Source: an uncultured Clostridia bacterium
GTDB lineage: Bacteria; Bacillota; Clostridia; RUG12999
DNA length: 64,000 nucleotides
Direction: 5' to 3'
NCBI GenBank assembly: GCA_946555455.1
Contig: CAMNSU010000003.1
Span: forward strand, 900 to 64,899
The notes under the pieces were generated by a model. That model was not told the DNA's origin. It saw only the letters and a list, made by a program, of their open reading frames with translations, and made no database searches. The first letter of the stretch is position 1, and each line of letters opens with the position of its first letter. The position numbers and the translations under genes were made by a program. Shown here piece by piece: positions 16,921 to 17,203 of the stretch.

Positions 16921-17203
16921 TGATAATATACGCGTTGCATATATTATACCATAATAAATGTACTTTTTGGCGCAATGTTACCCCAAAACGAGGGAGTTCC
17001 GGACTTTCTCATTCATGGAATATCCGGACACGTGCCGGATATTCCATACCTCTCAGCCGCGAGCGTTTCGCAAGGAACGCTGCGAGAGCGGACGCGGCTG
17101 CAAAGGGGGATTCCGATAAGGGGGACGGCATGACGGCGAATAAAAATGAGCCGGAAAAAGTCCCCCTTTCGAAAGCCCTTTGCGTATATTATATCATGAC
17201 TTG
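16921..17203 (+). repeat. intergenic repeat element copy A: hairpin-rich conserved core (17003-17167) bounded by ATAATATACGC/GCGTATATTAT-type inverted termini
   Basis: The core shares about 100 nt at 95% or more identity with 28913-29075, including a 57-nt identical run. Internal hairpins are GGAATATCCGG-ACACGTG-CCGGATATTCC and CAGCCGCG...CGCGGCTG, and AGGGGGAC...GTCCCCCT forms a closing stem. The termini are at 16923-16947 and 17182-17198. Confidence 0.6.

Follow-up and report, generated by a model that had tools for sequence, protein, structure and literature searches.

An Intergenic Repeat Family with a Conserved RNA Fold in Uncultured Gut Clostridia

Introduction

Two nearly identical, hairpin-rich segments, here termed copy A and copy B, lie in intergenic DNA next to unrelated genes within a 64,000-nucleotide (nt) stretch from an uncultured Clostridia bacterium (contig CAMNSU010000003.1). 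This whole stretch is referred to as the window. The locus raises the question of what kind of element has been copied: an earlier note left the choice between a mobile repeat resembling a MITE (miniature inverted-repeat transposable element) and a family of structured small RNAs (sRNAs). The analysis reported here points, on balance, to a lineage-restricted, non-coding intergenic repeat family of ∼190–240 nt that is mobile or recombining and carries a conserved RNA fold on its + strand. Members are numerous within a genome, have been gained, lost and replaced at orthologous sites, exchange segments and, in one genome, have been duplicated as a two-copy unit.

Results

Identity and Parts of the Window Copies

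Pairwise alignment of window segments 17013-17108 and 28923-29018 gave 96% identity over 96 nt, consisting of an identical run of ∼58–60 nt, two changes in a hairpin loop and a further 30 identical nt. This agrees with the 57-nt identical and 31-nt near-identical blocks described in the earlier note and, together with two full matches to a covariance model of the family, establishes the segments as real copies. Those matches were the only two in the window, and both fell on the + strand. On the 3′ side of the identical block, the copies have in common only GGGGGACGGC.TGAC and GGAA..AGTCCCCCT. The 29-nt hairpin GGAATATCCGGACACGTGCCGGATATTCC occurs exactly twice in the 64 kb, compared with zero occurrences expected by chance, and both copies fold far better than shuffled sequences (z = -6.9 for copy A and -7.8 for copy B). 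The parts of the element are as follows.

16988-17180, + strand: copy A, full element as matched by the covariance model (204.9 bits)
16960..17012, + strand: copy A 5′ module, GTACTTTTTGG...CCCCAAAAC, forming the P0 hairpin TTTTGG/CCAAAA, then ACGAGGGAGTTCCGGACTTTCTCATTC
17015..17047, + strand: copy A P1, a 13-bp hairpin, ATGGAATATCCGG / ACACGTG / CCGGATATTCCAT
17054..17100, + strand: copy A P2 three-way junction, with P2 itself at 17054-17061/17093-17100
17062-17081, + strand: copy A P2a, loop GCAA
17082-17089, + strand: copy A P2b, GC-GAGA-GC
17114..17171, + strand: copy A P3, CGA(T)AAGGGGGAC (17114-17126) paired with GTCCCCCTTTCG (17160-17171)
28885..29087, + strand: copy B, full element (covariance model match at 28898-29087, 198.4 bits)
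28925-28957 (P1), 28964-29010 (P2) and 29023-29034/29067-29078 (P3), + strand: parts of copy B, which has a shortened 5′ module from GTGC (28885)

Inside the P3 helix of copy A lie GGCATGAC and a small variable hairpin, P3a (17134-17137/17150-17153). The 5′ module of copy A, beginning GTRC, is also present in copies of L024, L027, L031 and L037 (L-numbers denote contigs or loci from relatives), and a P0 hairpin with another stem, GAAGGGG/CCCCTTC, could be read directly in a diverged copy. The long-range stem proposed earlier, in which AAGGGGGAC (17118-17126) and GTCCCCCTT (17160-17168) would close both internal hairpins, does not hold: the hairpins are upstream of it, at 17015-17047 and 17054-17100, and the GGGGGAC/GTCCCCC stem encloses just 17127-17159, a stretch containing a short variable hairpin. 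A different closing helix, pairing a CUUUC motif 5′ of P1 with sequence 3′ of P3, was rejected as inconsistent across copies.

Covariation Support for the Fold

When a structure-blind MAFFT alignment of the copies was submitted to RNAalifold, the consensus comprised P1, the P2/P2a/P2b three-way junction, a G-rich linker and P3 with P3a. Here, the ∼12 bp of P3 are interrupted by a single bulge, and both GGC(A/U/G)UGAC and P3a lie inside this helix. In this alignment, 94.8% of the cells were paired, compared with 83.3% after column shuffling and ∼40% when the partners were slid, and both sides had changed in 23 of 47 pairs, against 10.2 ± 1.8 expected. An alignment of 19 copies to the covariance model gave 95.2% paired cells and 27 of 47 pairs changed on both sides (116 cells), a level reached by none of 500 shuffles. 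The covariation check suggested in the earlier note thus lends the fold strong support.

Both-side changes were found throughout the structure: in 9 of 13 pairs of P1 across the 19 copies (97% of cells paired), in seven of the eight pairs of P2, and in all three outer pairs of P3 and all four pairs of P3a. The P3 stem contains G·U pairs in the L003 site A copy (L003A), in L040 and in the second L034 copy (L034b). The P2b loop reads GAGA, GGGA or GCGA and is therefore of GNRA type, the P2a loop is GNNA, and P2a includes a conserved U·G pair. Variants among the copies include a longer P1 loop, an alternative P2 interior and a P0 with a differing stem. A putative pseudoknot could join UCC, 5′ of P3, to GGA inside P3, the bases of which are almost invariant and for that reason beyond the reach of covariation.

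No open reading frame (ORF) is conserved among the copies, as the earlier note had stated, given that compensatory changes and indels break every frame. Most copies do contain a mini-ORF in P3, in which ATG, TTG or GTG stands 4–5 nt after a Shine-Dalgarno (SD)-like AAGGGGGAC and is itself followed by the Thr codon ACR.

17118-17171 and 29027-29080, + strand: mini-ORF in P3 of copies A and B, SD-like AAGGGGGAC then NTG ACR

The peptides encoded are 7, 11, 13 or 22 residues long, lie in two frames, and in several cases end W-K/N-E/K-S-P/L-x. The mini-ORF was rejected as a conserved gene because neither length nor frame is kept, and it probably arises as a side effect of RNA sequence conservation. 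A type I toxin-antitoxin locus was likewise rejected, as this sole recurrent mini-ORF yields no hydrophobic peptide.

The + strand is likely the structured one. It was chosen on the basis of folding energies (more stable in 14 of 15 copies, by a mean of 9.4 kcal/mol), the ratio of G·U-type to A·C-type cells in paired columns (42 versus 16, or 28 versus 16 after removal of one invariant U·G) and the identity of the GNRA/GNNA loops. The minus strand was considered as the functional strand, strong leftward promoters entering both window copies, but it is disfavored by the same energies, cell counts and loops. Transcripts of this strand are nevertheless probable in the window, within the leaders of tadA and of an AraC-family regulator gene.

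Distribution of the Family

Close relatives were found by means of the MATE transporter protein encoded beside copy A, and their syntenic contigs were then compared. These relatives are L003 (98% MATE identity; GCA_022801925.1), L004 (94%), L199 (94%; GCA_949739095.1) and L007 (87%). In addition, a pattern derived from the best-conserved hairpin was scanned against 185,579 species genomes. About half of the 31 matches were chance hits or ordinary terminators, and the true matches were confined to the metagenome-assembled genomes GCA_022801925.1 and GCA_949739095.1, on three and four contigs. A metagenome pattern scan contributed two further family members.

The covariance model, built from 15 copies, was applied to the window and the collected contigs, and family copies were called at E < 1e-8. 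The resulting 19 copies, of which L031, L034 and L037 carry some as tandem pairs and L003 a single diverged one, confirm that the family extends to relatives; at least 6–8 copies per genome are present in the small portion of the genomes seen. No copy was found in the examined loci of relatives with 61–62% MATE identity or in those of relatives with 47–78% AraC identity. Four pattern scans of viral contigs returned nothing or only chance matches (as checked by nhmmer), and BLASTN against plasmid and phage collections gave no match. Given that more distant relatives' loci and viral contigs lack it, the family appears confined to about one genus of uncultured gut Clostridia.

Rfam 15 produced no match anywhere in the window at gathering thresholds. 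When E values up to 10 were admitted, both copies gave only noise: a microRNA match on the P1 hairpin (E = 9.1) and SAM-VI on the AT-rich palindrome (E = 9.9). The element is therefore a previously uncatalogued family, absent from Rfam, as the earlier note's proposed search was meant to decide.

Turnover at Orthologous Sites

At the site of copy A (site A), the window and L003 carry different alleles, ∼70% identical and with different 5′ modules, between almost identical flanks, and the site is empty in L007 and L199. Between Ham1 and the terminator of that gene, L003 also has an insertion of ∼275 nt, which contains the diverged copy and is missing from L004, L005 and L007. Orthologous copies occupy the site of copy B (site B) in L003, L004 and L007, and occupancy does not extend beyond this close clade; where AraC identity falls to 78% or below (47–78%), the relatives have other sequence there and no copy.

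The nearest relative of copy A varies by segment: L024 is closest for the 5′ module and for P2, the first L034 copy (L034a) for P3, and copy B has the identical P1. Furthermore, the orthologous site B copies carry three different P1 alleles, which recur at other loci. The copies therefore exchange segments, and individual copies are mosaics.

Independent short-read contigs (L001, L002 and L004-L006) begin inside or beside copy A, at positions equivalent to window 17081, 17118 and ∼17168. Such breaks are as expected for a multi-copy repeat in those genomes.

A second, small repeated module was also observed, TGGTATAAT-TTCGTGCATCGCCGG-TTYC...GRAAC-...CGGCGGCGCTTTT, in which a promoter-like box is followed at once by a terminator-like hairpin. 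Its hairpin shows compensatory changes (GTTTC/GAAAC versus GTTCC/GGAAC). It fills the "cassette" positions of the element in element-free genomes and is fused to the element core at site A of L003. This module is absent from the window and occurs at the following places.

L199, 9770-9850: second repeated module
L203, 3900-3960, minus strand: second repeated module
L003, 9636-9680: second repeated module
L024: part of the second repeated module, upstream of the element copy

Genomic Context

The genes beside each copy are listed here.

Window copy A: between tadA (16445-16900, minus strand) and the MATE transporter gene (17303-18706, + strand)
Window copy B: between the AraC-family regulator gene (26552-28828, minus strand) and an ABC permease operon
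L024 copy: response regulator gene; ThiF-family gene (4096-4800), then mnmA (2992-4050)
L031 copies: jag and mnmE (2979-4352); mnmE and tsaD (4711-5718)
L034, L039 and L023 copies: XRE-family gene and metallophosphoesterase gene
L037 copies: dnaA and dnaN; NUDIX gene and contig end
L027 copy: contig end and LPG-synthase-like gene
L040 copy: fucosidase and glycosyltransferase genes
L003 diverged copy: Ham1 and GH123 genes

All window loci are intergenic with unrelated neighbors, as noted earlier, and across the family the neighboring genes are unrelated and lie in either orientation relative to the copies. Three copies end 8–45 nt ahead of the ribosome-binding site of the next gene, and at three loci (L027, L037 and the diverged L003 copy) the element faces the 3′ end of a convergent gene. 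Such variety speaks against a dedicated cis-regulator and upholds the earlier view of a repeat family that does not regulate one pathway.

A cis-acting leader, either riboswitch-like or binding a protein or tRNA and with P3, through the pairing of its SD-like and anti-SD-like strands, as its expression platform, is accordingly held to be very unlikely, although several observations favor it. The genes mnmE and tsaD and that for the metallophosphoesterase each have a copy directly upstream of the ribosome-binding site, and some riboswitches likewise occur in tandem. The mnmE ribosome-binding site of L031 reads AAGAAGG and is matched by a complementary CCUUCUU in the 3′ strand of P3 (read directly); such pairing of C/U-rich and SD sequences is generic, and minimum-energy folds leave P3 intact. 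Genes for tRNA anticodon-loop modification (tadA, mnmE, tsaD and ThiF-mnmA) adjoin 4 of ∼11 independent loci, which looks like more than chance in a small sample with inconsistent orientation and leaves room for a link between a leader and tRNA modification. The leader reading is opposed by the L027, L037 and diverged L003 copies, which have no co-oriented downstream gene, by the absence of the element from orthologous sites in close relatives, by the nearly identical and mosaic nature of copies within a genome, and by downstream genes that share no function. Moreover, the window copies point away from the nearest gene start, and their co-oriented genes have promoter-like matches of their own between element and start codon. 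That of the MATE gene, TTGCAA-17-TACACT, was read directly and is conserved in four genomes, two of them element-free; that of the ABC permease is TTGAAA-17-TATAAT.

The longest ORF of the first ABC permease begins at TTG 29283, its orthologues are called 38 residues shorter, and the promoter match TTGAAA-17-TATAAT at 29310-29338 falls inside the long ORF. The true start is probably near 29397.

An independently transcribed family of trans-acting sRNA genes, in which each paralogue would start from its own -10 box upstream of GTRC, end at or after P3, and regulate targets or bind a protein, is a better founded alternative but still an unlikely one. TATAAT, TATGAT, TATCAT or CATAAT is found 0–4 nt upstream in 7 of the 10 copies that start GTRCTTTTTG, and a promoter scan matched TTGATA-16-TATTAT at copy A. 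The first L031 copy follows the jag terminator and TTGCTG-17-TATCAT, with a terminator-like hairpin behind it (read directly), and at two loci no gene lies downstream in the same orientation. Other bacteria are known to have sRNA paralogues in tandem. On the other hand, three copies have no upstream -10 box and no -35 is conserved, and the copies that end 8–45 nt before a ribosome-binding site leave no room for a terminator and promoter. Neither does P3 form a canonical intrinsic terminator, a candidate role that was rejected: it spans ∼55 nt with an enclosed hairpin, the scan found no terminator at copy A or B on the + strand, and B-type copies continue CGUGAU with no U tract.

Boundaries of the Element

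Family-wide homology begins at (T)GTRCTTTTTG, which for copy A places the start at GTAC (16960), and ends in copy A just past the 3′ strand of P3, at about 17175-17180. The sharpest ends are provided by the two-copy unit that one genome carries twice, at jag|mnmE and at dnaA|dnaN, and that is alignable from TGTAC to ...CTTTTGAAT and not beyond. Its 5′ end, TGTACTTTTTGG, and its 3′ end, ...CTTTTGAAT, are not inverted copies of each other, and the flanks (ATCAT/CCAAG and CGGAT/ATTTA) show no target-site duplication. Comparison of occupied L003 with empty sites offered at most an ambiguous GTTT as a duplication. The search for target-site duplications that the earlier note proposed was therefore negative at these sharp ends, and of its "MITE-like mobile repeat" the mobile-like behavior stands, as seen in presence and absence between close relatives. 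The strict MITE label fails because terminal inverted repeats and target-site duplications are lacking.

The inverted termini assigned earlier to copy A, at 16923-16947 and 17182-17198, lie outside the family homology and are missing at the ends of other copies, and the right-hand sequence is kept in relatives that have no element. The following features are relevant.

17185..17203, minus strand: leftward extended -10 promoter, minus-strand CATGATATAAT, outside the element (TGnTATAAT match read directly)
16923..16951, minus strand: proximal tadA promoter region, palindrome ATAATATACGC-GTT-GCATATATTAT, the right half being minus-strand TGGTATAAT
29087..29115, minus strand: leftward promoter right of copy B, TTGAAA-17-TATACT with an upstream TG
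15079..15176, no strand assigned: "third locus," with the leftward -10 of a GH88-like gene in the perfect palindrome 15146-15170

The 17-mer GCGTATATTATATCATG, found exactly at 15160 and 17182, reads on the opposite strand as CATGATATAATATACGC, an extended -10 box, and minus-strand TGATATAAT lies directly right of copy A. Whether or not site A is occupied, TATTATAYCATGAYTTG is kept there, namely in the window, L003, L199 and L007, and L007 and L199 keep ATTATACCAT at the position of window 16923..16951, the region that in the window also contains the + strand promoter scan match mentioned above. The leftward promoter of site B is kept in L004 and L007 and also in L203 and L205, where unrelated sequence replaces the element. 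Given this conservation in relatives that lack the element, the "termini" are best read as host promoter sequences of the neighboring leftward genes and not as inverted terminal repeats. The promoter at 29087..29115 likely serves the AraC-family gene, and the leader of that gene would therefore carry the complement of copy B.

The palindromes were rejected as element ends or as a conserved operator, as only the half that forms the leftward -10 is kept in relatives. The palindrome ATAATATACGC-N3-GCGTATATTAT occurs twice in the window (15146-15170 and 16923-16947), against zero expected, each time overlapping a leftward extended -10, that of the GH88-like gene and that of tadA, respectively. The left half of 15146-15170 is not kept in L003. 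The palindromes may represent a strain-specific operator, or simply a pair of facing -10-like boxes.

The recurrences that had suggested a shorter third copy at 15079-15176 are exact, both for the 17-mer and for the 10-mer GGGAGTTCCG (at 15089 and 16992), yet this locus is no copy. With default filters it gives no match to the covariance model, and with filters off the score of 10.7 bits comes only from aligning the AT-rich palindrome with P1. A truncated copy was rejected, as beyond the 17-mer only a 14-mer is common with copy A (13 of 14 positions). The locus includes a stretch of ∼70 nt that is missing from L007, and only the promoter half of its palindrome is kept in L003 and L007. It may be a decayed remnant, though it is not a structural member of the family.

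Sharp ends with neither terminal inverted repeats nor a target-site duplication are what a non-autonomous derivative of a single-strand DNA transposon (IS200/IS605 or IS91 type), with hairpins recognized as DNA, would leave. This origin would explain both absences, and it is in keeping with hairpins near both ends and with strand-specific G·T tolerance, which is also expected of single-stranded DNA hairpins. In the window species group, furthermore, the copies are 10–25 nt from a leftward -10 and would thus be near transcription-melted DNA. The explanation is nevertheless distinctly improbable. No Y1/HUH transposase or TnpB gene is near any copy, no target tetranucleotide is conserved 5′ of the element, and the Rfam families of transposon-associated RNAs gave no match. 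The hairpins at the left and right ends of IS200/IS605 elements resemble each other, whereas P1 and P3 are unrelated in sequence, and a three-way junction bearing GNRA loops is characteristic of RNA.

Other Features of the Window

Between the AraC ribosome-binding site and copy B lies a hairpin, CATCATAGCC...GGCTATGATG, at 28859-28885. A pair in this hairpin, as written for the + strand, is C-G in the window, U·G in L004 and U-A in L007; on the minus strand, the scan called the hairpin a terminator-like site in the AraC leader. A region of ∼5.3 kb at window ∼19300-24670, between the Ham1 and GH123 genes, encodes MarR, MFS, Fpg, radical-SAM, nitroreductase and DUF1848 proteins. Ham1 and GH123 are adjacent in L003, L004 and L007, which indicates a strain-specific indel beside element-bearing regions. 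Two DUF1848 paralogues are present within the window, at 798-1730 and 23378-24292. Finally, an ORF of 2554 residues at 33042-40706 contains internal repeats of ∼1 kb at 35371-39125 (families D1-D6) and corresponds, by synteny with L003 and L207, to a large Fn3/Big/F5_F8 surface protein with a metallophosphatase domain.

Discussion

The family described here is short, non-coding and multi-copy and shows insertion differences between relatives. It also combines the properties of a bcr1/BOX-like repeat, namely lineage restriction, many copies, non-syntenic placement and an RNA fold kept by compensatory changes. The account that we regard as probable is that of a selfish, mobile or recombining element that would have spread into non-coding DNA, landing mostly just 3′ of promoters or just 5′ of ribosome-binding sites. 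Its + strand RNA would comprise an optional P0, the 13-bp P1, the GNRA-capped P2 junction and a P3 whose G-rich and C-rich strands enclose P3a. Transcription may proceed from the -10-like box at the element's own 5′ edge or by read-through, as consensus matches suggest, and selection would maintain the + strand fold. A generic effect on host genes is probable, arising from a bulky structure in leader or spacer RNA. In P3, the C-rich 3′ strand resembles an anti-SD sequence, which would be locked by the G-rich 5′ strand, and the + strand transcript in the window would be antisense to the tadA and AraC-family leaders. Under this account the element would not be a ligand-specific switch.

Several points weigh against this account. 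No transposase, reverse transcriptase or other mobility gene is present in the window, and none was found among the called or tested genes beside the copies. The duplicated unit lacks the terminal inverted repeats and target-site duplication of a classical mobile element. Part of the allele replacement could be due to gene conversion between copies already in place, with no need for transposition. Once the invariant pair is set aside, the G·U excess is moderate (28 versus 16). Most copies were retrieved by an exact P2a pattern, a sampling bias that makes the conservation of P2a look inflated. Lastly, a three-way junction and two GNRA-type loops are unusually elaborate for a selfish repeat, which hints at a specific RNA function.

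This last point bears on a further group of readings, to which we assign a small share of the probability: a new class of complex mobile non-coding RNA, which might be RNA-copied in the manner of a short interspersed nuclear element, be catalytic or recruit a protein, or else an RNA tied to the tRNA anticodon-loop modification genes. These readings draw on the junction with two GNRA-type loops, the helix of SD-like and anti-SD-like strands and the possible UCC/GGA pseudoknot. The strand-specific RNA features, combined with an absence of DNA-transposon hallmarks, are compatible with all of these readings.

The nearest parallels to the repeat family, in kind, would be bcr1 of the Bacillus cereus group and the pneumococcal repeats BOX, RUP and SPRITE, all of which have less elaborate folds. 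The ∼155-bp bcr1 (Okstad 2004 and Klevan 2007, as summarized in PMC3184786) is presented in that summary as a multi-copy intergenic repeat specific to one Firmicutes lineage, with no ORF and a distribution unconserved between close strains, and as preserving its RNA-level fold through compensatory base changes; in these respects the two families are alike. According to the same summary, bcr1 has 5-bp flanking direct repeats and a simple two-hairpin cruciform (PMC3184786), whereas the present element has no flanking duplication. It also differs from bcr1 in its larger fold, with a GNRA-type three-way junction and a long composite helix, and there is no sequence similarity between them.

The BOX, RUP and SPRITE repeats of Streptococcus pneumoniae are small and interspersed, have extensive secondary structure, are co-transcribed with their neighbors, and were judged to be parasitic, with slow turnover and a narrow clade (PMC3049150). 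The present element is similarly structured, interspersed and limited to a narrow clade, and its makeup is modular and mosaic. BOX is also modular and mosaic, being assembled from the short modules boxA, boxB and boxC, and RUP is a MITE of the IS630 type. Unlike BOX and RUP, the element forms a single integrated fold, ∼200 nt long and strongly covarying, and has no known partner insertion sequence. Classical MITEs (Correia, ERIC, Nezha and others) are tabulated in PMC3184786. The element resembles MITEs in size range, in being non-coding, multi-copy and intergenic, and in its presence or absence between relatives; they have terminal inverted repeats and target-site duplications, and it has neither.

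Multi-copy structured RNAs also include c-di-GMP-I riboswitches and T-box leaders. As with these, the element is a structured RNA of 100–250 nt with several copies per genome, sometimes in tandem, and varied genes downstream. By contrast, it has no Rfam match, about a quarter of its loci have no properly oriented downstream gene, copies are lost and gained between close relatives, and the copies are nearly identical and mosaic.

The family adds a well-supported structured RNA from uncultured gut Clostridia, organisms poorly explored for non-coding RNA, and joins two traits that are usually separate, an elaborate selected fold and the population behavior of a selfish repeat. Its spread with no inverted repeats, target duplication or nearby enzyme gene could reveal an unrecognized route of mobilization. 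On the practical side, such repeats break short-read assemblies. Copies inside the leaders of housekeeping and regulatory genes may alter the expression of these genes differently between strains.

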